Part shown: positions 28,963-55,027 of the stretch, piece after piece
Position numbering within the stretch: position 1 is the stretch's first letter
Layout of the letters: each line of letters starts with the position of its first letter
Origin: a virus
IMG/VR virus record: IMGVR_UViG_3300025030_000060
Location: 32,555 to 96,554 of that record
Length of the DNA: 64,000 nt
Direction: 5' to 3' (one strand)
The notes under the pieces: model-generated
What the model saw: only the letters and a program-made list of their open reading frames with translations
Databases searched by the model: none
Told to the model about the DNA's origin: nothing
Position numbers and translations under genes: made by a program

Positions 28963-31900
28963 TTATTCCCACGAGTTGTTACCGTAATAGAAGGTATCGC
29001 CACCGGCTGCCCCTGTGCAAACGTAGAGAAAACTATTCCCTGTTGAACTGGTCCCGTCCGTAACACCCGTTACGGTATACCAACCGTTATCGGTATCCCC
29101 ACCGACAGGTCGGTAATTTCGCGTGGACCTATTGACCGCACGCACCGAATACGTGCGGTACGCATTGACCGCACCCCCCGATATTTCCAGGGCGACCACG
29201 CATGTGCTGGCTGTTCCTACGGCTATGCTGCCGGTGGTTGCACCCGAGGGAGTAAGGTTCTTGATATACAGGTTGCTACCATCCCACCTTAGACTATTAA
29301 ACGAGGTGCTTCCAATGTTGAACTTCCCTACCCCGCTTGAATTGCCGAGCCAATAGCCCGCTGTACTGTAATCCGTGTAACCAGTTTTGCCTGAGCTGAT
29401 ATTAACCGCCCCCGCTGCGAAATTAATCAGACTCCCCAGCGTACTATCCGAGAAAAGCCCGATCCCTGCTACCTTCCCGTTTGCGTCTACCTTGAGGGTG
29501 TACTGAGCGGAATACTGGTTCGCCGCCGTATCGGCTTCGCTGGCGCTGGTCGCCGCACTTGTCGCGTACCCGGAAGCGTTGCTTGCGTGAGTCCCTGCCG
29601 TGGTAGCTGCACTCGAAGCTGTACTGGATGACGACGCTGCGCTATTCGAGTAGGAAAGGGCATTTCCTTCTGACGTACTTGCAGCCGTGGCGCTGTTACT
29701 TGCAGCCGTGGCGCTGGCAGAGGCATTACCCGCCGAAGTAGATGCACTGCTTGCCTGCGATGACGCAGTGCTGGCAGAGGCGCTGGCATTGCTTGCACTG
29801 GTTCCCGCTGCGGTCTCACTGGTCGCCGCATTGCCCGCTGACGTAGAAGCCTGAGAAGCGTAGGTACTGGCACTGCCCGCCGACGTGTTGGCAGCCGTTG
29901 CACTCGCCGCCGCCGCTGTCGCCGACGTGCCAGCCGCCCCCGCCGAGGTTGATGCACTACTGGCCGAGGTTGATGCCGCACTCGCCGACGTGCTTGCGCC
30001 TGCGGCCTCTGATGCTGCGGTAACGGCGCTTGCAGCCGCTGCCGTTGCAGAGTTCCCGGCGTTGGTCGCTTGCGTCGATGCCGTGGTGGCGCTGGAAGCT
30101 GCCGCCGTGGCGCTGCCTCCCGCTGCCGTCTCGCTAGCTGCCGCTGCCGTTGCGCTAGCTGCCGCTGCCGTTGCTGATCCTGAAGCATTGGACGCCTGAG
30201 TAGACGCCGTGCCCGCCGATCCTGCTGCGTTCGTGGCATTGGTTCCGGCAGTCGTGGCGCTGGACGCCGCATTGTCTGCTGAAGTGCTGGCTTGGCTAGC
30301 GTAGGTGCTGGCACTACCTGCTGAAGTGGACGCTGCCGTCGCACTGGCCGCCGCTGCGCTTGCGCTTGTCCCTGCGTTGCCTTCGCTCGTTGAGGCGCTG
30401 CTCGCTGATGTTGCCGCAGCACTCGCTGCCGTAGTCGCATCAGCGGCTTTTGATGTAGCCGTTACCGCGCTTGCCGCCGCTGATGTTGCTGACGTTCCCG
30501 CATTGGTCGCACTGGTTCCAGCAGAACTGGCGCTGGTCGCTGCCGCTGTTGCCGATCCTCCCGCCGAGACAGACTCAGTTATATCCTCACAACTCAACTG
30601 TGCTATTTCATAAGTCGAGGTGGTCCCTGAAGGATAGTTCAATATTGCCATTGGTCGCACGGCCACGATGCCAGTACCAGTACCGACAATTGAGCTGCCC
30701 GGTAATGTAAGAGTATAGGTCTGCCACCCTTGGGCTACTTGTAGATCAGTAGGCCCAGTTAAAACGTACTGATATGCGGCAGAGGGGTACGTTACGTTGG
30801 CGTAACTAGCATCCAACGCTGCATATCCAGCGTACAGGTCTCCTCCCGCCTGGTCAACAGTCCTCCTCGCTACTATGGTAAATCTGTATGTCCTTAATGG
30901 AGATACTGGATACAATTTTCTCGTGAAAATATTCACTAAACCCGTGCGAGATAGTGCAAGGGGTCCACCATTGCCCGAGGTATTAGCCACATTGTAGGCA
31001 TTTGCGTCAGCGGTGATCGGAGGGTTGCTGAGGGTATAGGCATAGGACAGTTCGTTTAGAGGGTCGCTGAAAAGTACACTGGAACTTGCTGCAACAGTCT
31101 CACCGTAACTAGACGCAGCAGATACCGAGGAAGCCGCCGCCGCCGTGGCAGAGTTACCCGCGTTCGTCGCACTCGTTGATGCGCTACTGGCACTGGTCGC
31201 CGCCGCGCTGGCGCTTCCCCCTGCCGTCGTGGCGCTATTCGCCGCGTTGGTTGCACTGGTAGCCGCTGCCGACTCTGCCGACTCCGCTGAGTTCTTCGCT
31301 GTGACCGCTGCCGTCTGTGCCGATTGAGCTGCTGACTGCGCCGTTTCGGCGGCGAGCTTCGATGTGTTCGCGGCACTGGCACTCGTAGATGCGGCACCGG
31401 CAGAAGAACTTGCGTTGCTCGCACTCGTTGCCGCTGCTGAAGCAGACGTACCCGCCGCTGTGTTGGCCGCTTCCGCCGCTACCTTGGCACTCGTCGCCGC
31501 CGTGCTGGCTGTTTCTGCGGCGGTTTTGTAGGTGTCGGCGGAACTTGCAGATGTCGCCGCAGCCGTGGCTGAAGTGCTGGCGTCCGCCGCCTTGGTTGTC
31601 GCTGTGGTGGCGCTGGTGGCCGCAGCACTGGCGCTGGTCCCAGCCTGACCCGCCGAAGTGCTGGCTTGCGAAGCGGAGGTGTTGGCGGCATCTGCAAACC
31701 CTGAAGCTGAAGTGCTCGAAGTAGCGGCATCCGTGGCTGACGTTTCCGCCGCCGTCGCATCTCCATCGGCTTCATTTGCGGCGAAAACTGCATTAGCTTC
31801 CGAAATGGCTGCCGCCGCTGCTGCCGCTGCCGCCCCCTCGACATCCATTACTATGCTGCCTGCGGTCTCCACCATAGCTGATGCCGTCGCCGCTGCGTTG

Positions 31901-32358
31901 ACTGCATTTGACTGCGCCAGTACAGCATTCGCCTGCGCCTGTATGGCTGCCGCTCTTGCTGACGAGGCGTCCGTTGCAGATTGAGCCGCTGCGGCTGCGG
32001 CAGTGTTGGCCAAAGTGGACTTATTGAAGGCCGCTATCGCATCATTCATCGCCGATGTGGCAGAGGCATTTGAGGCATTTGCTGCCGCTGTTGCCTGATT
32101 TACCAAGTTCGTGAGGTCCGTACCGCCCGATGTCCCGATAGTCAGACTTTTCCCCGTTCGATCCGTGGTGAGAGTAATACCCCCCGCGCCGATCAGTTTC
32201 AGCGTGTTGCCGATCTGCGTTGACCGCAATGTTTCCTGGCCCGCAGTGGATAGGTTCATGTAACTGGGGCCGATAATTGTTGCGGCCTGCGCGGAACTGC
32301 TGATAATGACCGCGCTTGCAAATATGACCGCCAGTAACAGTTTAATTCTCGATATCAT
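28963..32358 (-). CDS. Long Ala/Ser/Thr-rich fibre (Stf-like shaft, carbohydrate-binding-like insert, J-like C-terminal domain) with signal peptide
   Basis: ASAAATSA repeats; YTLKVDANGKVAGIGL and GYWLG...KFNIG...LRWDG motifs; N-terminus MISRIKLLLAVIFASAVIISSSAQA. Confidence 0.75.
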   Translation of the reverse strand: MISRIKLLLAVIFASAVIISSSAQAATIIGPSYMNLSTAGQETLRSTQIGNTLKLIGAGGITLTTDRTGKSLTIGTSGGTDLTNLVNQATAAANASNASATSAMNDAIAAFNKSTLANTAAAAAAQSATDASSARAAAIQAQANAVLAQSNAVNAAATASAMVETAGSIVMDVEGAAAAAAAAAISEANAVFAANEADGDATAAETSATDAATSSTSASGFADAANTSASQASTSAGQAGTSASAAATSATTATTKAADASTSATAAATSASSADTYKTAAETASTAATSAKVAAEAANTAAGTSASAAATSASNASSSAGAASTSASAANTSKLAAETAQSAAQSAQTAAVTAKNSAESAESAAATSATNAANSATTAGGSASAAATSASSASTSATNAGNSATAAAASSVSAASSYGETVAASSSVLFSDPLNELSYAYTLSNPPITADANAYNVANTSGNGGPLALSRTGLVNIFTRKLYPVSPLRTYRFTIVARRTVDQAGGDLYAGYAALDASYANVTYPSAAYQYVLTGPTDLQVAQGWQTYTLTLPGSSIVGTGTGIVAVRPMAILNYPSGTTSTYEIAQLSCEDITESVSAGGSATAAATSASSAGTSATNAGTSATSAAASAVTATSKAADATTAASAAATSASSASTSEGNAGTSASAAAASATAASTSAGSASTYASQASTSADNAASSATTAGTNATNAAGSAGTASTQASNASGSATAAAASATAAAASETAAGGSATAAASSATTASTQATNAGNSATAAAASAVTAASEAAGASTSASAASTSASSASTSAGAAGTSATAAAASATAANTSAGSASTYASQASTSAGNAATSETAAGTSASNASASASTASSQASSASTSAGNASASATAASNSATAASTSEGNALSYSNSAASSSSTASSAATTAGTHASNASGYATSAATSASEADTAANQYSAQYTLKVDANGKVAGIGLFSDSTLGSLINFAAGAVNISSGKTGYTDYSTAGYWLGNSSGVGKFNIGSTSFNSLRWDGSNLYIKNLTPSGATTGSIAVGTASTCVVALEISGGAVNAYRTYSVRAVNRSTRNYRPVGGDTDNGWYTVTGVTDGTSSTGNSFLYVCTGAAGGDTFYYGNNSWE

Positions 32359-32382
32359 ATGGATGTCTCCGTTTGCCAGGGT

Positions 32383-33138
32383 TTAAGGTTTGATGCAGTA
32401 CGGAAGTGCTATGTTGCGCGGTCGGGTCTCTGTGCCCCCGGTACTGCTTGTCAAAGCCCCGCTTTCTCCAGCAGCCACGCCCGCATTGACTCGATAGGAC
32501 ATGCTTGATGTCCCGGCATAATCTGCAACTGCGTGGTTATGGCTCTTAAACGCATCAGCCTGATAGCTGCCCAATGCACGCCCCGTATCGATCCCTCTGC
32601 CGCCATCCAAACCCCTGATGAACTCACCCCGTAAGTCGGGCAGGTTGTAGGTTGTCGTCCCATCCCCTGTACCGTAGGTAGTCCCTATTATCCCGTAAAG
32701 AACGGCATACGTTGCCCTGCTTACCGCCGTCCCGTTTGCCGCCAGCCACCCTGTCGGGCAACTGGAACCCGCAAATGCGATTACGGTCCCGGAAGGTGCG
32801 GCCCTGTCGGCAGTCAGACCTTGAGCTGCCGTGGCAAAGTCGGCGGCATGGAGTCCGTCTACCGTGTCGGCATCCCCGGTAATGCTCCCAGGCACCTTGC
32901 CGCTCCCGTTACGCACCGGAATGGTATTCGCTACCGTCCCGGCATTTGCGGCGTAGCCTACCCCGCCTAATGCGATCTGCCCTACGGTGGCTTTCCTCGA
33001 TGCACTCCCCTGAACCACGTTCACGAGGTCTGATGCTGCGACGCTGCTCGCCGCTGGCATCTGCGTGATTTTCAGGTCTGCTGCAAAAACGATGCTCGGT
33101 AACAACATCAAAGCCAGTAAATATCTAAGCGTTTTCAT
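32383..33138 (-). CDS. Short tail fibre with tail-collar domain and signal peptide
   Basis: PSGTVIAFAG...PTGWL.ANG...NLPDLRGEFIRG.D.GRG.D and ETRPRNIAL.YCIK. Confidence 0.85.
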   Translation of the reverse strand: MKTLRYLLALMLLPSIVFAADLKITQMPAASSVAASDLVNVVQGSASRKATVGQIALGGVGYAANAGTVANTIPVRNGSGKVPGSITGDADTVDGLHAADFATAAQGLTADRAAPSGTVIAFAGSSCPTGWLAANGTAVSRATYAVLYGIIGTTYGTGDGTTTYNLPDLRGEFIRGLDGGRGIDTGRALGSYQADAFKSHNHAVADYAGTSSMSYRVNAGVAAGESGALTSSTGGTETRPRNIALPYCIKP

Positions 33139-33152
33139 TGAAGCCCCTCCTG

Positions 33153-34178
33153 TTAAGTGACTATATTGTCTCCATCCTCGGTGAGGATGTGCTCTCCGTC
33201 TTCGGTAATGAGATTGAAAGATTGAGAGAAATCTGTTCCTATGAAAATCATGCCGTCATAGACGATATGCAAAGGCTTGATCTTTTTCACTAAAGTGTCA
33301 ATACGCGTCAAGGCGTCTTGGTCGATTGCGCCCAGGTCTGCCAAAATAACCCCTCTCGAAGTCAGGTAAGCCCCATCAGGTATGCCTGTGGCATCATTGT
33401 AAAACTTGGAACCATACTCTCCGTCTGCCTCTAACGCCCACAATGGCAACCACTCAACCGCACCGCTGATGATGTATTCGCTCTCCCCAGGCGTGAGCAT
33501 CCAGCTATCGCCGCCTTCGCCGTCAACGCCCTCAATGCTCGCCTTTACCAACACTGATTTGCGTGTGCCGTTCGCATCTTTGAGCCAAAGGTCTGGGGAC
33601 GGTATGCCGTCTACGCTGGCGACGGTAGCGAACCAGACATCATTCCCCTCGTCATCGGCTCCAACAATCTGCGCCTGAATTGCTCCAAGTTTCCCGGACC
33701 CGTTTTGATCGGCTAGAAGAATGTCTGCGCTCGGGACTCCCGAACTCGTGCTTATCTCGATTTGCCAGTTTGCACCCTTATCCCACCTTGCTTGGAGTTC
33801 TCCGACTTTCCCGCTCCCCCCTGTGTCTAGCAGAAGCACTGAAGGTGCACTCACTGTTGACCCCTCCAGCCCTATGCGCTGTATCGCGGAGCGGATAGGA
33901 TAATCCGTGTCCTTCATGGCAAGTTCCAGCTTCCGCATGGCGACAGATATAGGAATGGACACTTCCGCCTGATCGGGTTCGAAGTAATCCCCTAGATCGG
34001 CGACTATTCGGCGCTGTCCGTCTGCATCCGCCGTATAGATGGAGTTCATGCGACGGATTTTTTCCAGTTCTGGGTCGAAGCCCGTTTCCCAAAAGGTCTG
34101 TATGGCTGCCCCTAGTTCCGTCCATCTCGCAACCCCCCGTTTGGCCGGGGTCAGCCTTTTTACCAGCCAGTCAAGCAT
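33153..34178 (-). CDS. gp16: Baseplate wedge protein (P1 gp16-like) with repeat insertion
   Basis: WL..RLTPAK, W.PLWA, YLTSRG, PLHIVYDG motifs; follows bplA. Confidence 0.75.
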   Translation of the reverse strand: MLDWLVKRLTPAKRGVARWTELGAAIQTFWETGFDPELEKIRRMNSIYTADADGQRRIVADLGDYFEPDQAEVSIPISVAMRKLELAMKDTDYPIRSAIQRIGLEGSTVSAPSVLLLDTGGSGKVGELQARWDKGANWQIEISTSSGVPSADILLADQNGSGKLGAIQAQIVGADDEGNDVWFATVASVDGIPSPDLWLKDANGTRKSVLVKASIEGVDGEGGDSWMLTPGESEYIISGAVEWLPLWALEADGEYGSKFYNDATGIPDGAYLTSRGVILADLGAIDQDALTRIDTLVKKIKPLHIVYDGMIFIGTDFSQSFNLITEDGEHILTEDGDNIVT

Positions 34179-34190
34179 GATGATTCCTTA

Positions 34191-35597
34191 TTACGGGTAG
34201 GTAAGGGCGAACGTGCTGCCGAGAATGTCAATGGAAACCGCTTCTTTTAGCTGGCTAGGGGATGTGATCCCCGCTACGTTTATCTCATAGTAGGCTCCGG
34301 GCGCTTTAAAGTACCCTGTGTCTTTGACCCGTTTGTACAGGTCGGAAATCCGCACAGAATCAAGCCTTGTGGTCGAGTCAATGCCGTAGTCCTCACTCAG
34401 GAGGTCCTTGAGGTTGCTGACAGCCGTGGGTATGTCTACATCACGACCTATCTTCCCTGTGATGGTGACAGTAAAGGCCGACATTACCGGAACCTCCCAT
34501 TCGAACTTGCGGTTCAGGAGGGGGACTTCGCCAAGTGCCGCAAGTACTTCCGTCGAAAGGGTAACGCTTTCGGGCGCGTAGGCCGAAACGAATATCTTGT
34601 TTATGTTCTGGACGTCAAAGCCACTTTCCTGCTCTTGCTCCTGCTCTCCCCAGCACTTTATCCAAGTAATGCCTGCAATCTTGCTTTTGATATAGAAGGC
34701 GTAGTCGTCATCCCATACCAGCTTTCGATTGTAGCGAGGCCAGTAGTGAAGATTTTTCCTCATTTCTGTGATGCTTTCCGCTGCCCCACCGCCGTCTATG
34801 CTCTCCAGGCTGATTATGCTTAGATTTGCTGGTTCCCCTGCCATATCCAGCACCTCTGAAAGTAGCTGCAACTGCTGTCCTGATACCAGTACGGTTTGCC
34901 CCTCCGAGGTCCAGTAATTGACCTTTATCGCCGCACCGAATGGCGGGATCATTCCAAATATGCCATTGCCGAAACGTATACCGGTTTGACTCATGTGGCT
35001 ATAGAACTCATCGTAAACGGTGGCATCTGCGGCACTGTTCTGGAACAGGGGGGCATAGGTCCACGGTACAAAGCCGTCCCCGGTGTCCACCAACACCTCG
35101 AAGGATACAAGCTTACCGCTCACATCCTTGGGGAAGATGATCTCAAGAAAAGGCGACTCTTCGGAGATGGCGGCCAGTATCGGTTCATGCACAGTGAGCT
35201 GTGAGAATTCCACATCTACATATCCTCCGGGCAGTATGGCTGCCGCGCTTCTCAGCAAATACTCGACCTGCGCGGTGGATATGAACGCCGTATTGTCCGG
35301 GAGGGGAACCGAACTGGCTCCGTTATTGGTGATCCGCACAGTCCCTTTCGAGGGCGTTGTTTTGCGTGGAACATACTCTCTTCCTTCAGCGTGCGCCCTA
35401 ACGGACGAATCGTTGATGGCAGTGGCGAGAAAGAATTCCTGCTTCGCTCTCTCGACCTTCCAGAGTGCATCCCGCAAAGCCCAACTCTGGAAGATCGCTA
35501 TCTGGTCCACAAACTGGCTTTTCGCCAGCCGAACCCACGATGCGCCTGTGCCAATGATCGCTTTGAACTGGTCTATGGCGTCCTGCACAGAAATCAT
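34191..35597 (-). CDS. bplA: Baseplate wedge protein BplA
   Basis: EFFL.TA...SS, IRFGNG.FG.IPP, WGEQEQE motifs; synteny. Confidence 0.85.
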   Translation of the reverse strand: MISVQDAIDQFKAIIGTGASWVRLAKSQFVDQIAIFQSWALRDALWKVERAKQEFFLATAINDSSVRAHAEGREYVPRKTTPSKGTVRITNNGASSVPLPDNTAFISTAQVEYLLRSAAAILPGGYVDVEFSQLTVHEPILAAISEESPFLEIIFPKDVSGKLVSFEVLVDTGDGFVPWTYAPLFQNSAADATVYDEFYSHMSQTGIRFGNGIFGMIPPFGAAIKVNYWTSEGQTVLVSGQQLQLLSEVLDMAGEPANLSIISLESIDGGGAAESITEMRKNLHYWPRYNRKLVWDDDYAFYIKSKIAGITWIKCWGEQEQEQESGFDVQNINKIFVSAYAPESVTLSTEVLAALGEVPLLNRKFEWEVPVMSAFTVTITGKIGRDVDIPTAVSNLKDLLSEDYGIDSTTRLDSVRISDLYKRVKDTGYFKAPGAYYEINVAGITSPSQLKEAVSIDILGSTFALTYP

Positions 35598-35941
35598 AGC
35601 TTAACATCCCCCTCAAAGGCTCCAAAGCCGAAATCAATGACCACATACATGAGGTCTATCTCCTTAAATTCCACAAGGACGCCTTTTAGTACCATATCCT
35701 TGACATCAAGGGAAAGCTTTTCAGCGATGAGCATTTCCGCCATCACGTTTGTATCAGGCCCAGATGGCTCGAACTTCAGCCTTGAAAGCCTGTGCCCCCA
35801 TCCGGGTTTGTCTGCGACAGTCCCTTCAGGCGTCGCAAGCCACTCATAGATGCGCTCTTGCATAGCATGCTCGTCGGGCACAGTAATCACGCCGGATTCA
35901 TCCAATTCCATAATAAAACTGTACTCTTCAATTTGAGCCAT
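35594..35941 (-). CDS. pmgA: Baseplate protein PmgA (gp25-like)
   Basis: R..EWL.TP.G....P.WG motif; synteny. Confidence 0.8.
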   Translation of the reverse strand: MAQIEEYSFIMELDESGVITVPDEHAMQERIYEWLATPEGTVADKPGWGHRLSRLKFEPSGPDTNVMAEMLIAEKLSLDVKDMVLKGVLVEFKEIDLMYVVIDFGFGAFEGDVKL

Positions 35942-35944: not shown

Positions 35945-37813
35945 TTAAATCCTGTCGTGGGTCATGAGGTTCAGAATCGTGTCATCATAATGCACTTTGA
36001 TCGGGGCCAGTGTCGCCGTTTCCTTTTTGGGTGCATTTTGCTTGTTCAGTGCCGATATGAGCTTTTCGGTCCCCATCAAAGTTGCAGTCAGGGGTGCAGT
36101 GCCCGCATCCTTCAGAGATGTCGGCTGGGACACCTCCTTGATTTGCGTCTTTGCCGGGACGATAGCCCCCCGCTCATATGCTGACTTGTTGCGCTGAACT
36201 TTGCCGGGATAGTTGACGGTCTCCAGCGGCATCGCTTGCCCCTTCGCCCCCCGTCCCGTTTTTAGGTAAGCGTCCATGTTTCCTTCGCCCCAGTTGTATG
36301 CCTGGAGCGCATGGGTTTCATTTCCGCCATATTTCTTCATGAGCCTGCCAAGGTGCGCGGTCCCACCTTTTATGTTTGCCTTCGGGTCGCGGCGGTCGGT
36401 AACGCCAAGGTCTCTTGCTGTTCGAGGCATGAGTTGCATAAGCCCCACAGCTCCGGCCTTCGACTTAGCATTAGGGTTTCCTTGGCTTTCCGTGCTGATT
36501 ACTCCCTTAATAAGGTTCGAATTCAGCCCGTTCTTTTTGCTGGATTTTTCTATTTGCTCACTGGCCGATTGCGGCAGTACGTCCCCGGTGACAGGGTTGT
36601 ACTCTAAGGGCTTTTTCCCCTGTTTGACCCTCTCCTTGTTCATGCTCTCAACATAGGCGACGCTCTTGCGGTTCACCGCCTGCTGGTCAGAGTTGTCGCT
36701 GACGCTTGGCAACCCCGTCTTCTTATACAGGTCGTTGATCGGGTTGCTTCCACCCATGAAGAGGGATTTCAGCGCAGACCCTCCAGCCAGCACGGCGGCT
36801 GCTCCCGCAAGTACCGTCCCGCTGGCGAGCACCCCCAGCACCGGACCTGCTTTTGCCAGGACCTTGGCCGCGATGCTCGCCCCAGGAATCTTGCTCAAGA
36901 GTTTGATTCCTGTTGCTCCGGTGATCCCCCCGCCGATGGCTTCGGCAATACCAGCCCCGGCACCGCCCCCCCCGCCGCCATGCCCTCCGCTCTCTATGGT
37001 CTGGATCAGTTCACGGTGCCGACGCTGTTCGGTTCCTTCGGTCGGCGCGGCGTTGCGTCCTGTGGCAAGTCGCGTCTTCCGGCCCAGGAACTTGAATGCT
37101 TTCCCTAACAGGGTCTTGTCGTCCTGAAGTTTTTCCTTCAGTTCGCCGACAGCGCCTTGCATCTCCTTAGCGGCCTCCCAAATCGGCCCGCCAACGGCCT
37201 TTCCTGCCGCATCCTCTATGTCTCCTCCTTTATCCTTCCCCTTACCAATGACGGCACCAATGGCGGCTTTGAACCATCCCTTCATCCCCTTGACAGGTTC
37301 TTGGCTCTGCTGCTTTTCCCTCTCCAGTTCCCCTGCCGATTTAAACCGTCCGTTTTTGGCGCGTTCGGGCTGATTGATGGCTGTTGTGGCGCGGGAAGTG
37401 GCCGCTCGTGCGGAGCGAGGCATGGCGGGGATAGGGGTGACAACTGGCGTAGGCACTACCGGTGTAGGGAGCACCGGAGAAGCGTTCCGGGTGACGGTCC
37501 TGGCTGTCGCCGCTTGCGCTATCCGGGCCGCGACCGCCGAAGGGCGCACGGAGACGGGGCCGGATGTCGCCTTCAGCCGCTCGGTGGATTGCCGCAGGGG
37601 CTTTTCGATCTTGGCGAAATCCCGCACGTACATGTGCGCGGCCTTGGTCCCCTTGGCGACAGTCAGGGCTCGTAGCAGGGTCGGCAGCACGGCGGTGTTG
37701 CGCTCGATTTTCTTGAGAAGGGGGCGGTTCTCGAACTTTTCGAGGATTTCGGAAAGAGCCTCTATCGGGTCCTTCTCTTCGGCCTTCTGGGTTTTGACGG
37801 TTTCTTCGAACAT
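35945..37813 (-). CDS. sit: Tape-measure/injection transglycosylase Sit
   Basis: SLT motifs ESQG, A.GLMQLMP.TA, AYN.G; GGP.W motif; position between pmgB and pmgA. Confidence 0.8.
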   Translation of the reverse strand: MFEETVKTQKAEEKDPIEALSEILEKFENRPLLKKIERNTAVLPTLLRALTVAKGTKAAHMYVRDFAKIEKPLRQSTERLKATSGPVSVRPSAVAARIAQAATARTVTRNASPVLPTPVVPTPVVTPIPAMPRSARAATSRATTAINQPERAKNGRFKSAGELEREKQQSQEPVKGMKGWFKAAIGAVIGKGKDKGGDIEDAAGKAVGGPIWEAAKEMQGAVGELKEKLQDDKTLLGKAFKFLGRKTRLATGRNAAPTEGTEQRRHRELIQTIESGGHGGGGGGAGAGIAEAIGGGITGATGIKLLSKIPGASIAAKVLAKAGPVLGVLASGTVLAGAAAVLAGGSALKSLFMGGSNPINDLYKKTGLPSVSDNSDQQAVNRKSVAYVESMNKERVKQGKKPLEYNPVTGDVLPQSASEQIEKSSKKNGLNSNLIKGVISTESQGNPNAKSKAGAVGLMQLMPRTARDLGVTDRRDPKANIKGGTAHLGRLMKKYGGNETHALQAYNWGEGNMDAYLKTGRGAKGQAMPLETVNYPGKVQRNKSAYERGAIVPAKTQIKEVSQPTSLKDAGTAPLTATLMGTEKLISALNKQNAPKKETATLAPIKVHYDDTILNLMTHDRI

Positions 37814-45559: not shown

Positions 45560-47170
45560 TTACGCGGCAGGGATGAGTTTCAGTTCCATGATGTAATCGC
45601 GTCCGTTGAACTGCTGGAGGTCGCGGTAGGACAACTCCCAGAGGGTGTTGTTGTACTTCAGATCACCCAGGACGCCGTGCTTGAAGGCAATGGCCGGGAT
45701 CGCATCGCCGCCGATGTAGGCCGCTTCGCAGATGTTGCGCCCCTTGGCGAAGCAGAGGCTGGAGTAGTCGGCCCGCTGCGGATCTTCATAGAGGTCCCAC
45801 ATGCCGAACAGTCGCCCGACGTAGTGCGGCTGCGGGATCTGCGCGTAGCCGGGGGCCGGATCGAAGTGCGGGGAACGCATCGACTTCATGATGGCGCAGG
45901 TCTTCAGGTCGGCCACGATGCCGACAAGGCCGGAGACGCCGTTCGCGTTCAGCAGGGTCGAGGAGATGGTGAGAAGCGTGGTTCTCAGGGTCTCGTAGTA
46001 GTCCTGCATGTTGACGCCGGTTTCCGGGATGGTGTAGGTCCAGCTTTCGGACCCCTTCATGTAGAAGTACAGGTCGTGCAGATGCTTGCGGTCCTTGTCG
46101 GCGGCGAGCAGGTTCTTCATGGCAAGGGTCGCCATGTTGTCCACGTTCACATTGAACTCCCGGCGCATGCCCCAGAGTGCCTGGAGGGTCGTGCTCGCGG
46201 TGATCGCCGACTCGTGCGGGTAGACGGTGTAGCTGTCCATCTCGTGGTTGATCGACGGGATGAGCTGCGGGGCCTTCTCGATGTCCACGTCGAAGGCGAC
46301 ATGCACGGGGATCAGGTTGGCCGGTGCGACGCTGAAGACCGGATGGATGACGCCGTTGACATAATCCACGGTGCCGGACACGACTACGGCGGTCTCGCCG
46401 ACCTTGAAGTTGCCGGTCAGGTAGCCGTTGCCGTCGTCCTGGCCCACGGGGTTCCCGTCGTGCAGGATGCGAACCCGCTTTTTCTTCATCGGGTAGGCAC
46501 CGCCGAACTTGTCGGTGGAAACGAAATCGAATTCGTCGGCGAGGCCCCTCTTGGCACCGTCGCCCGCGATGGTCAGGTGGCGCTGGTCCATGGAACTGTA
46601 CTGGCCTGTGTAGTCCCACTGGATGCGGTCGCCCTTGGTGAGGTCGCCGAAGGTGGACCCTGCCGTCTTCCAAACGCGGAAGATTTCGGACTGGTTGAAC
46701 TGGCCGGGGATGTAGCCGATCATGTTGGAGGTGATCGACTGGAGCATGGTCGGCAGCACCAGGGCAATCATGCGGTTACGCATGAGCGACTGGTTGGAAT
46801 CCTGCGTGTTCATGGTCGCCGCGCTTTCGAGGATCAGGCCAGAACGGGACGTGTGCGCGGGCGCTCCCAAGACGTTCTGGATGGCGGTGTAGGCCGATGC
46901 CAGCAGATCATCCCCCGGCATGCGGTTGCGCTGCCTGCAAAATGCGCGGACTGCGTTGGAGGCGGTCGCCAGCACCATGCCTGCATCCGGGCCGCACCCT
47001 TCAAAAATGGTGTGCGGAACCGCTGCGTTGAGAGCGTCCGTCCTTGCGGCCTTCTCCAGGATGAATTTGCCGGTGCTTTCGTCAATCACCGGTTTGATGA
47101 GCGCATCCTTCATGTGCTGCGCTTTCTCGGTGACATCCGTCACCAGAGCTTGGTACGCTTCGGTACTCAT
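45560..47170 (-). CDS. gp23: Major capsid protein (P1 gp23-like)
   Basis: N-terminal propeptide to LILES; DIEK.P.LIP.INH, GDAIPA, N.TLW motifs; strongly biased codons. Confidence 0.88.
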   Translation of the reverse strand: MSTEAYQALVTDVTEKAQHMKDALIKPVIDESTGKFILEKAARTDALNAAVPHTIFEGCGPDAGMVLATASNAVRAFCRQRNRMPGDDLLASAYTAIQNVLGAPAHTSRSGLILESAATMNTQDSNQSLMRNRMIALVLPTMLQSITSNMIGYIPGQFNQSEIFRVWKTAGSTFGDLTKGDRIQWDYTGQYSSMDQRHLTIAGDGAKRGLADEFDFVSTDKFGGAYPMKKKRVRILHDGNPVGQDDGNGYLTGNFKVGETAVVVSGTVDYVNGVIHPVFSVAPANLIPVHVAFDVDIEKAPQLIPSINHEMDSYTVYPHESAITASTTLQALWGMRREFNVNVDNMATLAMKNLLAADKDRKHLHDLYFYMKGSESWTYTIPETGVNMQDYYETLRTTLLTISSTLLNANGVSGLVGIVADLKTCAIMKSMRSPHFDPAPGYAQIPQPHYVGRLFGMWDLYEDPQRADYSSLCFAKGRNICEAAYIGGDAIPAIAFKHGVLGDLKYNNTLWELSYRDLQQFNGRDYIMELKLIPAA

Positions 47171-47708: not shown

Positions 47709-48446
47709 CTACAGGGTTGATTTGACGTTGCTCGATACCATGGGGTGTGGTTGCCCGCTCCAGCAGCAAAGGCAGTACCCGTTGACGTTGCCTTTGGGGT
47801 CGCCCGTGCCGCCATCGTGGTCTATCCCTTCCATGGCCGTGGTCGTCTGCGCCCCTGTGATCCTCACGTCTTCCAGCCCGCTTGCTGATCGGTACACGTC
47901 GCCCTCAACATGGAAAATCATGTCACCGTCCTTGGTGATGGTGAATTCCGTGCCAGTAGCCTTCTGAACGACGTTATAGGAGCCGTCCTTATTGACCGCT
48001 ATCATGACCCCATGAAGGGTCGTAACGGCGTCTTCGCCGTAGACATGCGCGGGCTGCGCGGGCTCATCGCCGGTCCTGGCATGAACGTATGCATCCGGCC
48101 CTGCAAACGTCTCGTGGGGCAAGCTCGGCACATTCTCCGGGGCATAGTGGACGCTGCCGGTTATCCGGGGGCGGCGTGAATCGCCCATGTAAGGGAAGTC
48201 GACCCAAACAAGGTCGCCTTTCTTCACCGGGACGAATGAGCCGTCATTGGGTCGTGCGCCGATAGGCAGCTTATATTCCGCCCAAGGGAGGTCTTTGACG
48301 GGGGTGTTGTCGAAGATACCGTAGACCCGAACTTGGACCAAAAGCAGCTTTTTCGGGTCGTCCTTCCCTTCGGTTTCCACGATGCCGACGCACTCCCGGT
48401 ATATTCGATCGTTACGCTTCCCGTGGTCTCTCATGTCCCCGCTCAT
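47709..48446 (-). CDS. gp5: Baseplate spike (P1 gp5-like, OB-fold)
   Basis: DP......QVRV.G, LPWAEY.LP, GDLVWV.FPY.GDSR.P; C-terminal CCWSGQPH metal-binding tip. Confidence 0.85.
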   Translation of the reverse strand: MSGDMRDHGKRNDRIYRECVGIVETEGKDDPKKLLLVQVRVYGIFDNTPVKDLPWAEYKLPIGARPNDGSFVPVKKGDLVWVDFPYMGDSRRPRITGSVHYAPENVPSLPHETFAGPDAYVHARTGDEPAQPAHVYGEDAVTTLHGVMIAVNKDGSYNVVQKATGTEFTITKDGDMIFHVEGDVYRSASGLEDVRITGAQTTTAMEGIDHDGGTGDPKGNVNGYCLCCWSGQPHPMVSSNVKSTL

Positions 48447-48449
48447 AGT

Positions 48450-49442
48450 TTAATTCCTTATGCCGGAGACTTGGCAGAAGTATGACTGCGGACTCCATGA
48501 GTGCGCTACCATCCCTATGACGACCTTGGCCGGAAGGCTTTCGTCAATTGGCATGTCGGCGCGTTCGGTGTTCCACTCCAGCCCGAGAGTAAGGCCGGGG
48601 AGTAGCGCCCCGTTGCCAGCCGTACTGAAGTCGATGACGGGTTTTGAGATCTCAGTGAGGTTGTCGATGCTCGCCTTGGATGCCGACGTAAACTCGGTCG
48701 GGGCCTTCGGGAAACGGCTGGACTTCTGGAACCCCTCAACCATGTCCCATCCAACGTAGTTACGCTCGGTCAAATCCTGTATGATGCCTTCGGTGTTCGG
48801 CCTGGAGTATACGATGACCTTGTTCTCCTTGCGCGAATCGTTGTGGCTGTATACCATCTCTGGCGCTGCGCTGTAAAGCTCTTTCAGTTTCCTGAACACG
48901 ATCTGGCCCCTTTGCCAGAAGCAGACCGCACCATGTTCCTGCGCCATCTGCCGGAGCATCTTTGAAGGGCGCATGGCAGGCAAAAGGTGATAATCGTTCG
49001 TGGCAGGGAATGATCCCACGTCGTATTTAAGTCCAGGGGCGAGTTTTTGAAGGACTGCCGACACTGATTTATGGCTGAAAACAATCGCTTCGCGGGCCGG
49101 GAGCTTCAGTTTGTAAACGCTTGCCTCTATGCAGTTGAAGGTGATCCACCGGTCGTTGATCGGCATGGTCAGGATGACAAAGCGGATTATCTTGTCCAGG
49201 CCATCACGCTGGAATCGGTCTGAAAGCACAACCTCAAGGACGTCTTTTGGTTTTACTCCCAGCTCGTCCCGGATGATTCGGTAATAATCATCTATGACAA
49301 ACATCAAGCGAGGCCCGGAAAGATCCGACGTTTCCACATAGGTGAGTTCCTTTAGGAACGATCTATCAAGGGGTTCAAACGGCTTATTGTCCCGGATAAT
49401 GGTAATTTTTTGGACCAATATGTCTTCTTGGTTTGCTGACAT
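48450..49442 (-). CDS. gp6: Baseplate hub protein (P1 gp6-like)
   Basis: YVE..DL.GP.L, YHL.....PSK.LRQ.A...GA.C...RG, DES.P motifs. Confidence 0.8.
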   Translation of the reverse strand: MSANQEDILVQKITIIRDNKPFEPLDRSFLKELTYVETSDLSGPRLMFVIDDYYRIIRDELGVKPKDVLEVVLSDRFQRDGLDKIIRFVILTMPINDRWITFNCIEASVYKLKLPAREAIVFSHKSVSAVLQKLAPGLKYDVGSFPATNDYHLLPAMRPSKMLRQMAQEHGAVCFWQRGQIVFRKLKELYSAAPEMVYSHNDSRKENKVIVYSRPNTEGIIQDLTERNYVGWDMVEGFQKSSRFPKAPTEFTSASKASIDNLTEISKPVIDFSTAGNGALLPGLTLGLEWNTERADMPIDESLPAKVVIGMVAHSWSPQSYFCQVSGIRN

Positions 49443-49443
49443 G

Positions 49444-51024
49444 TCACCCCCTGACTAGTCGTTTACCTTTGACTTGCTTGCCAGTGATCTTCTTGCGCGA
49501 TTTTGCAACCACACTCAGGGTCACCGCCTCACTCACTACAGGGGTAGTGTCGCCAGATAGAGGGGTGATCCTGAGTTTGACCTGATATGTACCACTGGAT
49601 AACGCTGAGAGGTCAAGCGTGTGACTACCGGGGGATTCCGTGCCAACCGTTGTGTAGTTGGCTCCGTTGTCCGTTGAGTATGCTAGAGTGTAGTCGCGGT
49701 CTAACGTATCAACTGTGGTATATTCCACTATACCATTAACTGCAAAAGGGGTGGAGGTAAAACCAGTAAACGTCACAGGGGTGAGTGCTAAGGCCACAAT
49801 TGATGTCTTCCACTCATAGTACTGAAAGGGTTCATCATGATTCGCGTCGTTGTAGCTACCGTAATCCCACAGTGTCCAAGAACTCAGCGAATGCACTTCA
49901 GTTGGTCTTGATGACCCTGAAAAAGGCCAGAATGATACCGCCTCAACCGACGATTGCCCCGCGACTTCAGACATCATTGTAGATATACAAGCAGCATCAG
50001 CAGCGCTGGGAGCCTCAGACCATAATTCCCTGTAAAGCCCAAATTCGTCAATTCGTATTTTGGTTCCCGTACGTCCGGCGTTTGCAAGTGACGCGTTTAT
50101 TGTGGCGACGCCGGATACCACACTGTAAGTGCCTCCCGAAAGGTATGAGTGGGGCAAAATGTGCCCATCATAAATATTGTCCTTACCTTGTGTATGTAGG
50201 TAATCAATGAGGGCAGCAGCATTAGTGTAGGAGTGCGCGGATGTTAGGTCAACTTTGATATTATTCTGCCTTTCAGCAGGTAATGCGCCTTTGACTGCAT
50301 TGTAAACGAGTTCCTGCAACCGAGCAGTTTCAGCAATATAAGTAGTGTTCCCAAAAGCATCACCTTCATTCATCGGATCAATATGAATGTGCGAATAGTT
50401 CTGATAACGGTCAGCCAAAAATGCGGCTAATGGGGCGTTGAAGTAGTCCCAAACTGTCCCGCCGTAGCAAACCTCGGCCTGCAATAGTAAAGCATTTGCC
50501 GCCCATAAGTGGTTGAGGCTCATACTACCATAATCTATGTTGTAACTACCCCAATACCATGAAATGTACGGGATAGTCAGTACCAACTTTTGCCCGTAAT
50601 GCGCCGTGCGCTCAACAACTCGGTCCAGCACACTCCAATCGTAACTTTCGTCGGGTACAATCGGCCCTGTGTATGCTGTGCCATTACTAGGGGCGGACGT
50701 TATGAGCCGCATGAATTGGCCGGGAACCGCCCACTCACGAATCCATTTAATACCTAGTTCCGCGAATTTGCCATATGCCCAGTCAGTGTATCCGTTACCT
50801 AGTAACCACGGATACTGACGGCCCCATGTTGTCGCTAAAAGCCCTGCGTAACTATCGGGCTCATCGTCGTCATTGGTATAAGGAACTCCAGTTGCATATG
50901 ATTGCCCATACTGGTTTAAAAGAAATGTACCGTAACTGGTTGCATCCTCCATGCTTTCAGCATCGTTCTGACACATTTCCCCATAAGCGCGCGATCGTAA
51001 AAAATTTATTCCGAAATCCGCCAT
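49444..51024 (-). CDS. Clan GH-A glycoside hydrolase (TIM barrel plus Ig-like domain), possible virion depolymerase
   Basis: LG.KW.R, YDW..LD.VV, NE acid/base, HSY, EFG nucleophile motifs; low GC. Confidence 0.7.
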   Translation of the reverse strand: MADFGINFLRSRAYGEMCQNDAESMEDATSYGTFLLNQYGQSYATGVPYTNDDDEPDSYAGLLATTWGRQYPWLLGNGYTDWAYGKFAELGIKWIREWAVPGQFMRLITSAPSNGTAYTGPIVPDESYDWSVLDRVVERTAHYGQKLVLTIPYISWYWGSYNIDYGSMSLNHLWAANALLLQAEVCYGGTVWDYFNAPLAAFLADRYQNYSHIHIDPMNEGDAFGNTTYIAETARLQELVYNAVKGALPAERQNNIKVDLTSAHSYTNAAALIDYLHTQGKDNIYDGHILPHSYLSGGTYSVVSGVATINASLANAGRTGTKIRIDEFGLYRELWSEAPSAADAACISTMMSEVAGQSSVEAVSFWPFSGSSRPTEVHSLSSWTLWDYGSYNDANHDEPFQYYEWKTSIVALALTPVTFTGFTSTPFAVNGIVEYTTVDTLDRDYTLAYSTDNGANYTTVGTESPGSHTLDLSALSSGTYQVKLRITPLSGDTTPVVSEAVTLSVVAKSRKKITGKQVKGKRLVRG

Positions 51025-51956
51025 TACAGGTCACCCGCAGAAAAGTTATCAATACTGCCTGTATTCTCCAGTATAATCCCAGGCGAACCTGAGGTAATTG
51101 TTGAATCAGTTATTGATATAACGGAGTTAGCCCAACTGGTGCCATCATAGGTGTCGATAGTGATAGACGAACCAACAATATTTGCGCGGATTTGCGTGAT
51201 ACCTAAGAAGTACCCCCCCTCACCATCATCACCGGTAACATCAGTGGTAGCCAGAGTGCTGGCTGTACCCGCGACTATTTTGTTCAATAGCAGCATCCAT
51301 GTATCATTACCTGCAAAATATGCGTAGCATTGGTACCTTGTGAATAACGTGTCGCTGCCCCGAAGAATTACGCCCGAGGGTAGAGATACTAAATCTACCT
51401 GAACAGACTGGTTTGGTGCAAATGTTTCGTTATAAACAGCAGCGTAAACCCCCGTGCCTTGACCAGCGGCTACATTGGTGGATATCAGTGGTGCAGCCGA
51501 AGGCGAAGCAGTCAGCCAATTACTACCAAGAGCGCCATCCGCTCGGTTAAAGCTGTCTGTTACGGAAACAGGTACACTAGGAACCGCGTTAGCACTTGCA
51601 CTCAAGGCACTCTCTCCAATTGCGTTAACAGCCGTAACACAAAAGTAGTATGTCGTACCATCTGTCAGCCCTGTTATGGCCGTACCTGATGTTGTACCTG
51701 TGATTTTGGTCGCGCCGTCCGACCCGTCTTTGGCTGTCGGAGCAGACCCCGCCATCCAATACACGTTATACGAGGTAGCCCCTGATACCGCACTCCATGA
51801 CGGCGTTATGCTGCCGGATGCGGTTGCAAGGGTCGGCGCAGAGGGGGCGGCGGGAACGGAAGCAACAGCCTTCATGGCCGCCATGAACAGCAACTGAGGC
51901 GACGCCCACGCAGGGGAAACTATAAGCAGGGATAGAACCAGTAATCGCCATATCAT
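51024..51956 (-). CDS. Secreted fibronectin type III plus lectin-like protein
   Basis: Signal peptide ending AWA; WS.V.GA.SYNVY...GL..GT.YYF.VTAVN..GES FN3 motif; DSFNRADG.LG..W and IDNF beta-sandwich. Confidence 0.75.
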   Translation of the reverse strand: MIWRLLVLSLLIVSPAWASPQLLFMAAMKAVASVPAAPSAPTLATASGSITPSWSAVSGATSYNVYWMAGSAPTAKDGSDGATKITGTTSGTAITGLTDGTTYYFCVTAVNAIGESALSASANAVPSVPVSVTDSFNRADGALGSNWLTASPSAAPLISTNVAAGQGTGVYAAVYNETFAPNQSVQVDLVSLPSGVILRGSDTLFTRYQCYAYFAGNDTWMLLLNKIVAGTASTLATTDVTGDDGEGGYFLGITQIRANIVGSSITIDTYDGTSWANSVISITDSTITSGSPGIILENTGSIDNFSAGDL

Positions 51957-54900
51957 CAGTAATTCTCCTTGATCGCCGCACAATCAGCGGTGTTGGCCCC
52001 AGTCCCCTTGCATGCGAACCACGACTTAGTTGTAAGCGTAGCGGGCGTTCCCGTCACCCATGTTGGAGTCAGCGTGGTGATCGTCACGGTTCCAGTCCCA
52101 GTCAAGCTGAAATCGAAATACCTCCCGGCCACTACGTTGGTGATGGTGATGGAGTTGGAAGCGACAGAAGCACCTGCATAAGCGGTAGTATCAAATGTGG
52201 CCGATGTCGTTTGAGGGAAAACCCCGCCGCTGATCGTGGGATTAGTGCCAAAGACTGCGGCACCCGTGCCCGTCTCATCAGTCAACGCAGCGGCGAGATT
52301 GGCACTGGAAGGCGTTGCAAGCGCAGTCGCCACTCCTGTGCCCATCCCGCTGATGCCTGTCGCTACGGGAAGCCCTGTGGCATTGGTGAGCGTGGCACTG
52401 GTGGGCGTGCCAAGAACCGGTGTTGTCAGGGTGATTCCTGCGAGCGTAAGCCCTGCCGATGCTCGTGTCATGTCTACAGCGGTAGTTCCGATGTAGACAG
52501 AGGGGAGACGCGCAGCAGCTATGGTACCGGTCGCTATGTTGGTGGCACTGGTTGTGTCTGTGGTCGCCGACGTGGCCAACCCCGACACTCTCACCGCAGG
52601 AACCGTGCCTGTCGCTATGGTTCCCAGAGTGGTGATTGCCGTCGAGCCCGCCCATGTGGAAAGCGCGGTGTTCTCGACGCTGTTAAGCCCAAGGCTGCTT
52701 TTAAATGCGGCATAGTCCGTTGCCCCGAGCAGAGCTTGGACGTTCACACTTGGGGTGATCCCAGCAAACGTGGTCAAGTCGGCGTCGTAGGCTTGGACCG
52801 TAGACCCGAGAGTAAGCCCGTCCAATTTGGTTTTATCGGCTGCGCTCATACTGCCATCCGCGATGGTTGTCGCAGCGGATATGCTGATAGCTGGAGCTGT
52901 GCCGCCTGATGACACAATGGGCGCGGTGCCCGTTACAGCGGTAACAGTCCCCCCTCCTGCCCCTGGCGCGGAGATGATACCATTGCTGATGGTGACACTG
53001 GTTCCGTCGACCTTCACGCCGCCGAGTACCGTAGTCGATGCCGTGGGGAGCGTGTATTCAGTCCCTGCTGGAGTCCAACAGCCCTCTACCGCCCCGTACT
53101 GGTCCACCCCTAATGGTGATTGCCCTGCGGGACAGTTGGACCCGTTCGCGTAAAGGGCGGTCGCCGTGGGTGCATTGTCGGTTGTGACCGCCAGTGTCCC
53201 GGAGGAGGGAAAGACTACGCTGGACATGTCGGCACCGGCCCCGCCTCGGCTTTTCGCCAAGGTGCCTGTCCACCCAATGGTATGCGTACTCGTGTCGGAT
53301 GATACCGTCACATTGGTATCATTGGCGAAGGTTTGGGTAGTAGCTATCAAGCCCCCGAGAGAGGTAATCCCGCTGCCGCCTGCGCCGGTTTGGTCTCCGG
53401 TACAGGTAAACGCCCCCGTGGTTTCGTTGTAGGAGCTGATCTTGTCGGTCCCCGAACAGGTGATGGACGCGGCAAGCGCAGCCCCCGCCGTGGCATCGTT
53501 TTCCAGGTAAAATTGGTTCGGAGTTGTACCGCTGGTAGGCTTTACGTTGGTGGCAATCCACTCTGGCATGTCGATTTTGTTCTTGAATACCACTTCCCCG
53601 CCCGACGTGGACATGTTGTAAAATGTTGGTTTGCCCGTCGTATAGTTTCTGAAGGTGGTGTCAGATACCCCGCCCGACTGAGCTACCCACGAGCGAGATC
53701 CGGCGCTGGTCGATGACAGAACATACCCATCCGCGCCGGGGTTCCCAAGGGCGGCTTCCCGCGCCGTTGCGTCTACAGCGTTGATGGTTATGTTGGCGGA
53801 ACCGTTAAACCCGACGCCGTTGATGGTGCGGGAAGTGGTGAGCGTAGCCGCACTACCGGTAGTGTTCTGGTTCAACGTCGGCACGTCTGCCGTTACCAGT
53901 GAGCGGAAAAGCGGAGCCCCCGCCGATCCGTTCGGCGCGGCAAGGAAGTAGTTCGCCACCTGTGAACCATACGGGGCAATGTAATCCGTACCGGCAGCCG
54001 CAGCGGATACCGTGCCGCTCCCGTTGGCCTTCATGACCCCCGAGACAGTGCCCGCTCCCCCACGGGCCGCCGCGAGAGTGCCTGTGGTCAAGTTAGTCGC
54101 ATTGGTTGTGTCCGTCGTCGCCGAAGTAGCGAGCCCCAGCGACGAGCGGAACGCGGCATAGTCCGTCGCCCCGAGCAACGCCTGGACGTTCGCGCTTGGT
54201 GTGATCCCCGCGTAGGTCGTCAAGTCGGCATCGTAGGCTTGAACCGTGGTGCCTATGGTGAGCCCCAGCAACGATTTGAATGTGGCATAGTCGGCGGCCC
54301 CCAGCAACGATGTCACATTGACCGATGGCGACAGTGCCGCCGCTGTTCCAAGGCTTGACGTGCTGGCCTTGAGGTTTAGAGCTGCCTGAGTCGCAGTGGA
54401 TACCGGCTTGTTGGCGTCGCTGGTATTATCCACGCTCCCAAGGCCGAGGGATGTCTTTGTGACCGCCGCCGCCGCGCCCGCAACGTCATAGGCCGTTGAT
54501 GCGGTGAATGCCGCCGTACCTAGGCCGGAGGTCGCAGCCTTAGCGTCAAGGGCGGCCTGTAGCCCCGTAACCGTAGATATGGCCTGCGCCCCGGTATGGT
54601 TGGTTCGACTGAAGGCGTCTGCCGCAATGCTTTGAGGGTCGTATGTAACCGCAACCATGTCGCCGCTGCCCGCCCCTGACAGCCCCGTGTTACCTCTCGG
54701 AATGGTGAAATCCAGAACCGCATCGCTGGATGTCCCGGAGTTCGTCACGATTACATCCGTCCCAGCCGCCCCCGTTGTTACAGTCCCCACAGCCACGGTC
54801 GCTGCTGTCGCAGATGACATCTGACCCTGGACATACTGCCTGATCTGGTCCATGCTGGCAGTGTACGCCACGCCCTTCCCGTCGGCCAGACCGCTCGAAG

Positions 54901-55027
54901 GCCGCCCCAAGGGCACCTTATCGGTGGACAACACAGTTCCCGGCACGAGCGGAGTGTGCGAGATGTCGGCAGCAATCAGCGCCGTGGGTATCAGCAACAG
55001 CGCAAGCCAAAAATATACCTTGTTCAT
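51956..55027 (-). CDS. Mosaic fibre protein with signal peptide
   Basis: GLGSVDNTSD.NKPVS, VQAYDADL (x2), YTLP.AS...LGGVKV, LDFTIPRG fibre repeats; start MNKVYFWLALLLIPTALIA. Confidence 0.8.
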   Translation of the reverse strand: MNKVYFWLALLLIPTALIAADISHTPLVPGTVLSTDKVPLGRPSSGLADGKGVAYTASMDQIRQYVQGQMSSATAATVAVGTVTTGAAGTDVIVTNSGTSSDAVLDFTIPRGNTGLSGAGSGDMVAVTYDPQSIAADAFSRTNHTGAQAISTVTGLQAALDAKAATSGLGTAAFTASTAYDVAGAAAAVTKTSLGLGSVDNTSDANKPVSTATQAALNLKASTSSLGTAAALSPSVNVTSLLGAADYATFKSLLGLTIGTTVQAYDADLTTYAGITPSANVQALLGATDYAAFRSSLGLATSATTDTTNATNLTTGTLAAARGGAGTVSGVMKANGSGTVSAAAAGTDYIAPYGSQVANYFLAAPNGSAGAPLFRSLVTADVPTLNQNTTGSAATLTTSRTINGVGFNGSANITINAVDATAREAALGNPGADGYVLSSTSAGSRSWVAQSGGVSDTTFRNYTTGKPTFYNMSTSGGEVVFKNKIDMPEWIATNVKPTSGTTPNQFYLENDATAGAALAASITCSGTDKISSYNETTGAFTCTGDQTGAGGSGITSLGGLIATTQTFANDTNVTVSSDTSTHTIGWTGTLAKSRGGAGADMSSVVFPSSGTLAVTTDNAPTATALYANGSNCPAGQSPLGVDQYGAVEGCWTPAGTEYTLPTASTTVLGGVKVDGTSVTISNGIISAPGAGGGTVTAVTGTAPIVSSGGTAPAISISAATTIADGSMSAADKTKLDGLTLGSTVQAYDADLTTFAGITPSVNVQALLGATDYAAFKSSLGLNSVENTALSTWAGSTAITTLGTIATGTVPAVRVSGLATSATTDTTSATNIATGTIAAARLPSVYIGTTAVDMTRASAGLTLAGITLTTPVLGTPTSATLTNATGLPVATGISGMGTGVATALATPSSANLAAALTDETGTGAAVFGTNPTISGGVFPQTTSATFDTTAYAGASVASNSITITNVVAGRYFDFSLTGTGTVTITTLTPTWVTGTPATLTTKSWFACKGTGANTADCAAIKENY

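Follow-up and report, generated by a model that had tools for sequence, protein, structure and literature searches.

Tailed phages are, in the textbook account, assembled wholly in the cytoplasm, and the fibre proteins of phage P1 carry no signal peptide. The present analysis concerns four genes on a 64,000-nucleotide stretch of an uncultured P1-like phage (the window; bases 32555-96554 of the 96.5-kb IMG/VR virus record IMGVR_UViG_3300025030_000060, which is about 84% complete). Their products, a 251-amino-acid (aa) tail-collar protein, a 1131-aa long fibre, a 1023-aa fibre-like protein and a 310-aa FN3 protein, begin with predicted Sec-type signal peptides. P1 shares with this phage its gene order, homologous capsid, sheath, tube and baseplate proteins, and the Dar/Hdf antirestriction block. 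The host-recognition genes differ: P1 has R, S, U and the cin-invertible C segment where the window phage has the signal-bearing collar and long-fibre genes, and P1 is without the three-gene cassette found here between gp24 and gp6. BLASTP gave no significant match in the record to any of P1 R, S and U, and the invertase/resolvase (PF00239) and Caudo_TAP (PF02413) families were likewise without a match, in agreement with a preliminary description of this DNA in which the P1 R/S/U/cin module was said to be lacking. No signal was found on the proteins encoded after gp16 in P1 or in the marine P1-like plasmids p0908 and pAMBAS45.

The 251-aa protein resembles T4 gp12 and the solved PF07484 tips (1ocy, 1pdi, 9cuy and 8kec) in the sequence of its collar domain, including the region of the His-x-His motif. 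The alignment with the solved fibres spans the collar domain only; the 251-aa protein adds a signal of 19 residues, and the position of its second cysteine is occupied by Ala or Val in 9cuy and most relatives. Virion proteins with cleavable signals are known from the Inoviridae, where pIII and pVIII, the receptor-binding one included, are assembled outside the cytoplasm; these phages are tailless and are extruded without lysis, whereas the window phage is a cytoplasm-built myovirus. T5 Llp and the Cor proteins of phi80 and N15 are small receptor-masking lipoproteins encoded beside the receptor-binding gene, whereas the four window proteins are 251-1131 aa long, have fibre-type domains and carry no lipobox. 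P1 Lyz is a signal-arrest-release (SAR) endolysin. The Lys protein of phage fOg44 is a secretory endolysin (PMC8878798). Both endolysins are late phage proteins routed by a signal across the inner membrane before lysis, as is proposed here, and unlike the proposed fibres they are lysis enzymes and not virion parts. A search of the literature found no Sec-exported tail fibre or receptor-binding protein of a tailed phage, the nearest cases being signal-bearing endolysins, spanins and the loading signals of contractile injection systems. The parts described below (a P1-type tail, gp12-type and other fibres, and Sec signals) are known, and the assembly route would be new if experiments bear it out.

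Signal peptides of the four proteins

Signal peptides were called with a rule-based script using the classical n/h/c and -3/-1 rules, together with comparative evidence, and the export of all four proteins is well supported by these features of their sequences. The 1131-aa long fibre (28963..32358, minus strand) lies at the position of P1 gene S and matched the PHROG tail-fibre families phrog_38058 and phrog_3279. Its predicted signal covers residues 1-25 (nt 32284-32358) and reads MISRIKLLLAVIFASAVIISSSAQA, with cleavage between AQA and A and a mature start of ATIIG, followed by an Ala/Ser/Thr-rich shaft, an inserted domain at about residues 427-598 and, at the C-terminal end, a tip containing Cys1053 and Cys1114. 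The 251-aa protein (32383..33138, minus strand) is a tail-collar receptor-binding protein resembling the tip of T4 gp12 (PF07484, E 1.7e-22; 79.6 bits against a Pfam gathering score of 24), which bears out the tail-collar domain assigned to it earlier, and it matched the short tail fibres 9cuy, 8kec and 1ocy in a sequence search of the PDB. Residues 1-19 (nt 33082-33138; MKTLRYLLALMLLPSIVFA) form its predicted signal, with cleavage between VFA and A and a mature start of ADLKI, and cysteines are found at positions 127 and 248.

The 1023-aa fibre-like protein (51956..55027, minus strand) has a predicted signal in residues 1-19 (nt 54971-55027; MNKVYFWLALLLIPTALIA), with cleavage between LIA and A and a mature start of ADISH; a conserved N-terminal domain is followed by a repeat module. 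The 310-aa FN3 protein (51024..51956, minus strand; Pfam fn3, E 3.9e-8) has one in residues 1-18 (nt 51903-51956; MIWRLLVLSLLIVSPAWA), with cleavage between AWA and S and a mature start of SPQLL. No domain was assigned to its C-terminal half, no homologue sharing its N-terminus was found, and a single-sequence AlphaFold2 model of it (pLDDT 36) was unusable.

The n-regions of the four proteins are positively charged (R4/K6; K2/R5; K3; R4, as listed), and those of their relatives likewise. The h-regions are uncharged and hydrophobic in all four, with best 11-residue Kyte-Doolittle means of 2.6-3.0, and small residues occupy positions -3 and -1 throughout, the relatives carrying ARA, AFA, AIA and LFA. 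No RR pair of the twin-arginine (Tat) motif was present in any of the four N-termini, and no Cys of a lipobox was seen near any of the predicted cleavage sites. When the 123 minus-strand open reading frames (ORFs) of the whole record were ranked by N-terminal hydrophobicity, the four were among the nine highest, where they were joined by two small membrane proteins, one lipoprotein-like protein and the GH108 endolysin. The N-terminal hydrophobic signal of this endolysin (MKRFLVALWVLLGLAIPLS..) provided a built-in positive control for export signals in the genome. High scores were given to 4 of the 5 fibre-cassette proteins and to 5 of the 118 others (Fisher p = 7e-5). The sheath, tube, baseplate and capsid proteins scored low. 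Anatomy, the -3/-1 rule and the comparisons given below thus agree with the preliminary description, which had recognised Sec-type signals on these four N-termini and none on the core tail proteins.

The assigned ATG codons, which lie upstream of the hydrophobic segments, are well supported. Each of the four is preceded at 6-11 nt by a Shine-Dalgarno-like motif (GGAG, AGGAGG, GGGGG and AAGGAG, with AGGAGG belonging to the collar gene and AAGGAG to the FN3 gene). The signal-bearing genes are tightly packed, with gaps of 14, 24 and 5 nt to their upstream neighbours, and the start of the FN3 gene overlaps the stop of the 1023-aa gene by one base (TGATG). The signals would be artefacts of annotation if the true starts lay downstream, and in-frame Met codons are indeed available at residue 34 of the long fibre, residue 27 of the collar protein and residues 25 and 28 of the FN3 protein. 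Such downstream starts are extremely improbable in view of the good ribosome-binding sites (RBSs) at the upstream ATGs, the tight spacing and the overlapping start and stop; in addition, the reading frames of relatives remain open and hydrophobic over this stretch even after their sequence has diverged, and a collar homologue (P0059) has Leu at the downstream Met of the window protein.

A second reading of the same segments is that they are uncleaved signal-anchors or SAR-like segments, which would hold the fibres at the inner membrane, on its periplasmic or its cytoplasmic side, until depolarisation at lysis and so time or localise their attachment. Relatives of the phage use a SAR endolysin, as P1 does with Lyz, the endolysin of the phage itself has a hydrophobic N-terminus, and the h-region of the long fibre is fairly rich in Ala and Ser (about 47%), yet strongly hydrophobic. 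The other three h-regions are rich in Leu and Ile, with 2-3 small residues among 13-15, and not in Gly and Ala. Small residues at -3 and -1 are found in all the signal-bearing fibre proteins and their relatives, with conserved mature sequence immediately after, and a homologue without a signal begins at the cleavage point. Retention by an uncleaved anchor is considered improbable.

Conservation of the signals and cysteine content

A sister phage (IMGVR_UViG_3300025030_000126, referred to as G001; BplA 75% identical) carries both genes of the fibre slot, each with a signal. In the collar protein the signals of the two phages are 47-53% identical, as against 79% for mature residues 20-80. The long-fibre signal of the sister phage is unrelated in sequence (..AGIAAALIFVVWAAMF.., with ARA before the A at the cut), while the mature parts are 68% identical from the predicted cut onwards, ATIIGPSY corresponding to ATVIGPSF. 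Fast turnover of sequence with the n/h/c plan kept is the behaviour of a signal peptide and the opposite of that expected of a docking helix or of non-coding DNA. A full-length collar homologue without a signal (P0009) starts where, in the alignment, the predicted mature N-terminus lies, so that the signal appears as an add-on to an ordinary fibre N-terminus.

In the 1023-aa protein the signal is kept in the sister phage and the first 119 residues are 82% identical, with no significant match in that phage beyond them. The N-terminus, signal included, is also shared by another protein (P0292). This was the sole informative relative, since a search with the first 137 residues was dominated by the repeat module of the mature N-terminal part, which is widespread in annotated phage tail fibres. 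A domain shared between the N-termini of the collar and 1023-aa proteins was considered and dropped, the BLASTP match (E 0.022, a short piece) being not significant.

These comparisons also bear on whether the segments could instead be hydrophobic helices that serve docking or trimerisation in the cytoplasm, with a coincidental resemblance to signals. Fibre N-termini often form helical bundles, which speaks for such helices. A helix with this role would be expected to be conserved, yet the segment is the least conserved part of the proteins, and in the long fibre another sequence has taken its place altogether. Homologues that retain the remaining N-terminus lack it, its presence is tracked by the cysteine pattern described below, and the positive n-region and the -3/-1 rule hold throughout. 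The coincidence that this explanation calls for is regarded as very unlikely.

Searches beyond the sister phage gave few relatives. No N-terminal match was obtained when the fibre N-termini were compared with cultured phages by tblastn, and residues 1-110 of the long fibre gave no match at all as a query, the query protein itself being likewise unreturned. Further members of the clade, sought with the BplA, gp6-like and collar proteins, were limited to the sister phage and one fragment of it. Signals are rare among related proteins on viral contigs: 78 of 79 collar-domain proteins in IMG/VR had none, and only that of the sister phage had both the signal and the cysteine pair.

Cysteines were surveyed in the best 119 matches of the collar family. 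Cys248 is nearly universal among them, and Cys127, its candidate partner, is found in 8 of the 119, all of them signal-bearing. The second cysteine is thus confined to collar proteins that carry a signal (8 of 8, against 0 of 106), and Ala127 with a lone Cys248 occurs in 101 collar proteins that have no signal. Five other signal-bearing collar proteins have neither Cys127 nor Cys248. The 1023-aa protein contains six cysteines in three tight pairs (524/542, 632/650 and 1006/1016), and its counterpart in the sister phage has one pair. Cysteine patterns of this kind in the signal-bearing proteins are, as far as residue positions can indicate, typical of exported proteins.

Candidate route of assembly

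The reading preferred here is that the distal host-recognition proteins (the collar, 1131-aa and 1023-aa proteins, with the FN3 protein as a probable fourth) are made as Sec preproteins and join the particle at lysis. Its probability is put at roughly one half, and an assembly route that uses two compartments is plausible. We infer that the proteins are virion parts joining at lysis from the synteny of the fibre slot, the packing of the operons, the build with a conserved N-terminus and a variable C-terminus, and the absence of further fibre genes. The collar and long-fibre genes directly follow gp16, in the slot of P1 R, S and U, and so take up the single fibre slot that a P1-type baseplate offers; no other fibre-like gene was found in the 96.5-kb record. 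The signal-bearing genes are packed into late structural and baseplate operons. In the 1023-aa protein, the conserved N-terminus and variable C-terminus seen in the alignment with the sister phage form a pattern typical of fibres anchored on a conserved baseplate, and the repeat module in its mature N-terminal part, common in annotated tail fibres of phages, is a further ground for a virion role. A fuller form of the proposal is put forward tentatively, as a possibility: every protein of host recognition (gp12-like short fibre, long fibre, side fibre and lectin-like protein) would be Sec-exported, folded oxidatively in the periplasm without Tfa and docked at lysis, while head, tail and baseplate would be cytoplasmic.

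According to the proposed mechanism, SecYEG would export the unfolded fibre chains, and signal peptidase I would cut after AQA, VFA, LIA and AWA. Folding and trimerisation of the fibres would take place in the periplasm, with no help from a cytoplasmic chaperone of the Tfa or U type (none is present in the record), and disulfides would form there in the collar and 1023-aa proteins. Fibreless particles would be built in the cytoplasm, would meet the fibres only once lysis joins the two compartments, and would then receive them on the baseplate, where the docking sites may be the gp16-like and gp24-like proteins encoded just upstream. If this is true, the assembly of tailed phages gains a late extracytoplasmic step, fibres can make use of disulfide bonds and periplasmic folding factors, and their function depends on the Sec and Dsb systems of the host. 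In expression hosts, such fibres may fold properly only if targeted to the periplasm. The idea lends itself to a clean test by comparison of this signal-bearing clade with P1 and the marine P1-like plasmids, which have no signals.

The second baseplate operon consists of the gp25-like, gp7-like and gp24-like genes, three extra genes, and the gp6-like and gp5-like genes, compared with 25-7-24-6-5 in P1. The 1023-aa, FN3 and 526-aa genes form this three-gene insertion between the gp24-like and gp6-like genes. In the sister phage, two small signal-bearing proteins are encoded in place of the FN3 and glycosidase-like proteins, and the FN3 protein may therefore be accessory and not structural. The preliminary description had called all four genes virion fibre genes, which was too strong: the designation suits the collar and 1131-aa genes in the canonical fibre slot, while the other two lie in an inserted and variable cassette.

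It could also be that the four proteins are exported accessory factors outside the virion, released at lysis or held in the envelope, such as adhesins, lectins, helpers that bind or degrade a matrix, receptor decoys on debris, or blockers of superinfection. The insertion of the cassette with the 1023-aa, FN3 and glycosidase-like genes relative to P1 and its differing content in the sister phages are in keeping with such a role. Signal-bearing tail-collar proteins also occur as secreted proteins of cells, and a small exported protein adjoins the fibre gene. The preliminary description had itself named secreted adhesins or receptor blockers as an alternative, and of the four the FN3 protein is best suited to such a part. 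Against an accessory role, the sole fibre slot belongs to the collar protein and the 1131-aa fibre and nothing else in the record could serve, and the mature N-termini are conserved as in structural proteins, with the genes translationally packed in late structural operons. The 1023-aa protein, with its conserved N-terminal domain and swapped C-terminus, is built like an attached fibre. For the set as a whole, an accessory role is judged unlikely.

Several points weigh against docking of exported fibres at lysis. The main physical objection is the dilution of fibres and particles when the cell opens, so that the route needs an assumed confined phase in which the inner membrane is breached and the outer membrane still confines the contents, as occurs in the lysis of phage lambda. 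The record is about 84% complete, and a fibre without a signal could therefore lie in the missing part. The clade amounts to two genomes plus fragments, so the conservation is shallow, and the glycosidase-like 526-aa protein of the same cassette has no signal. The raw count of 8/8 for Cys127 overstates independence: a tree of the collar domain gave 8 changes of signal and 5 of Cys127, few and poorly supported, with only 2 supported independent pairs, and the corrected test was without power. The long fibre has three cysteines and its orthologue in the sister phage none, so that a need for disulfides is not general.

Genome context and neighbouring genes

PHROG, Pfam and tblastn matches place the record as a distant relative of P1, with the real genes of the window on the minus strand. 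The homologue of the baseplate wedge protein BplA (34191..35597, minus strand; phrog_1369, E 8e-101) was used as the anchor for synteny and for tracing relatives. It is 30% identical to that of P1 and 37% identical to those of P1-like plasmids of Vibrio, Photobacterium and Alteromonas. Homologues of gp16, BplA, PmgA, Sit, gp22, gp23, gp5, gp6, gp24, gp7 and gp25 follow one another in the P1 order and make up a P1-like tail and baseplate module. This order is kept by the homologues of capsid gp23 (45560-47170), sheath gp22 (43297-45006) and the SLT transglycosylase Sit (35945-37813), all on the minus strand, and homologues of gp21, PmgG, tube, PmgB and PmgA were also found in it. The Sit homologue is 622 aa long against about 1140 aa in P1; if Sit, a putative tail ruler, sets the length of the tail, a much shorter tail is expected. 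Downstream of the P1-like tail genes lies the Hdf/DarA/DdrA/DarB antirestriction block. Elsewhere the record carries genes for ParB, for replication and recombination, and for a small terminase, which fits a phage-plasmid.

No match was obtained when 20 kb were compared with phages by megablast. Scans of genome contigs with the BplA and sheath profiles gave only enterobacterial P1-like loci or nothing, which left the phage without an assigned host.

The gene of the gp16 homologue (33153..34178, minus strand; phrog_2015; BLASTP against P1 gp16, E 2e-9) immediately precedes the signal-bearing collar gene. That of the gp24 homologue (55033..56121, minus strand; phrog_1767; BLASTP against P1 gp24, E 1e-5), which has a C-terminal extension of 140 aa, immediately precedes the 1023-aa gene. 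Both proteins end in an acidic, Gly-rich tail, ..ITEDGEHILTEDGDNIVT in the gp16-like protein (33153-33215, minus strand) and ..EFEGDGFYDDGGIIDYDNGQSMIWG in the gp24-like protein (55033-55110, minus strand). The tails are kept in the sister phage and absent from P1 gp16, P1 gp24 and Vibrio p0908, and no significant BLAST similarity was found between the two.

The downstream border of the inserted cassette is formed by the homologues of gp6 (48450-49442, minus strand; BLASTP E 3e-43) and of the hub protein gp5 (47709-48446, minus strand; BLASTP E 8e-29). The last gene of the cassette encodes the 526-aa protein (49444..51024, minus strand), which is probably a GH5-like glycosidase of clan GH-A that carries an Ig-like domain in its C-terminal part. 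Its assignment draws on an atlas lead and on sequence motifs: the comparison with cellulase-family clusters gave a feature score of 0.89 and a TM of 0.5-0.55, which are to be read as a lead only, and the sequence holds NEGD and IDEFG motifs and a Lys-rich tail. It had no match in Pfam or PHROG. The protein may be a tail-associated depolymerase. The baseplate operon of the sister phage contains a further insertion, an ORF of 348 aa between the gp25-like and gp7-like genes (L005:7229-8275), with no counterpart in the window.

A promoter and terminator scan of about 28200-29100 gave nothing above chance. A gene on the plus strand (28469..28942; RBS AAGGAG), which adjoins the 3' end of the long-fibre gene and has the Hdf-like gene on its other side, encodes a predicted exported protein of 157 aa. 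This protein begins with MTNLKL and has a putative cleavage site between AIA and G. It could be a moron-like envelope protein beside a receptor-binding gene, in the manner of T5 Llp or phi80 Cor. The same spot in the sister phage (L003, about 16450-16830, minus strand of the locus) encodes another small protein, otherwise different, that shares these first six residues and has a lipobox (..SLTAC). At the other end of the window lies the gene of the GH108 endolysin (596..1285, minus strand; PF05838, E 1.7e-12; phrog_315), which also has a PG_binding_3 domain, and near it an 87-aa protein (35-298, minus strand) with a lipobox-like LPGC sequence could be an outer-membrane spanin.

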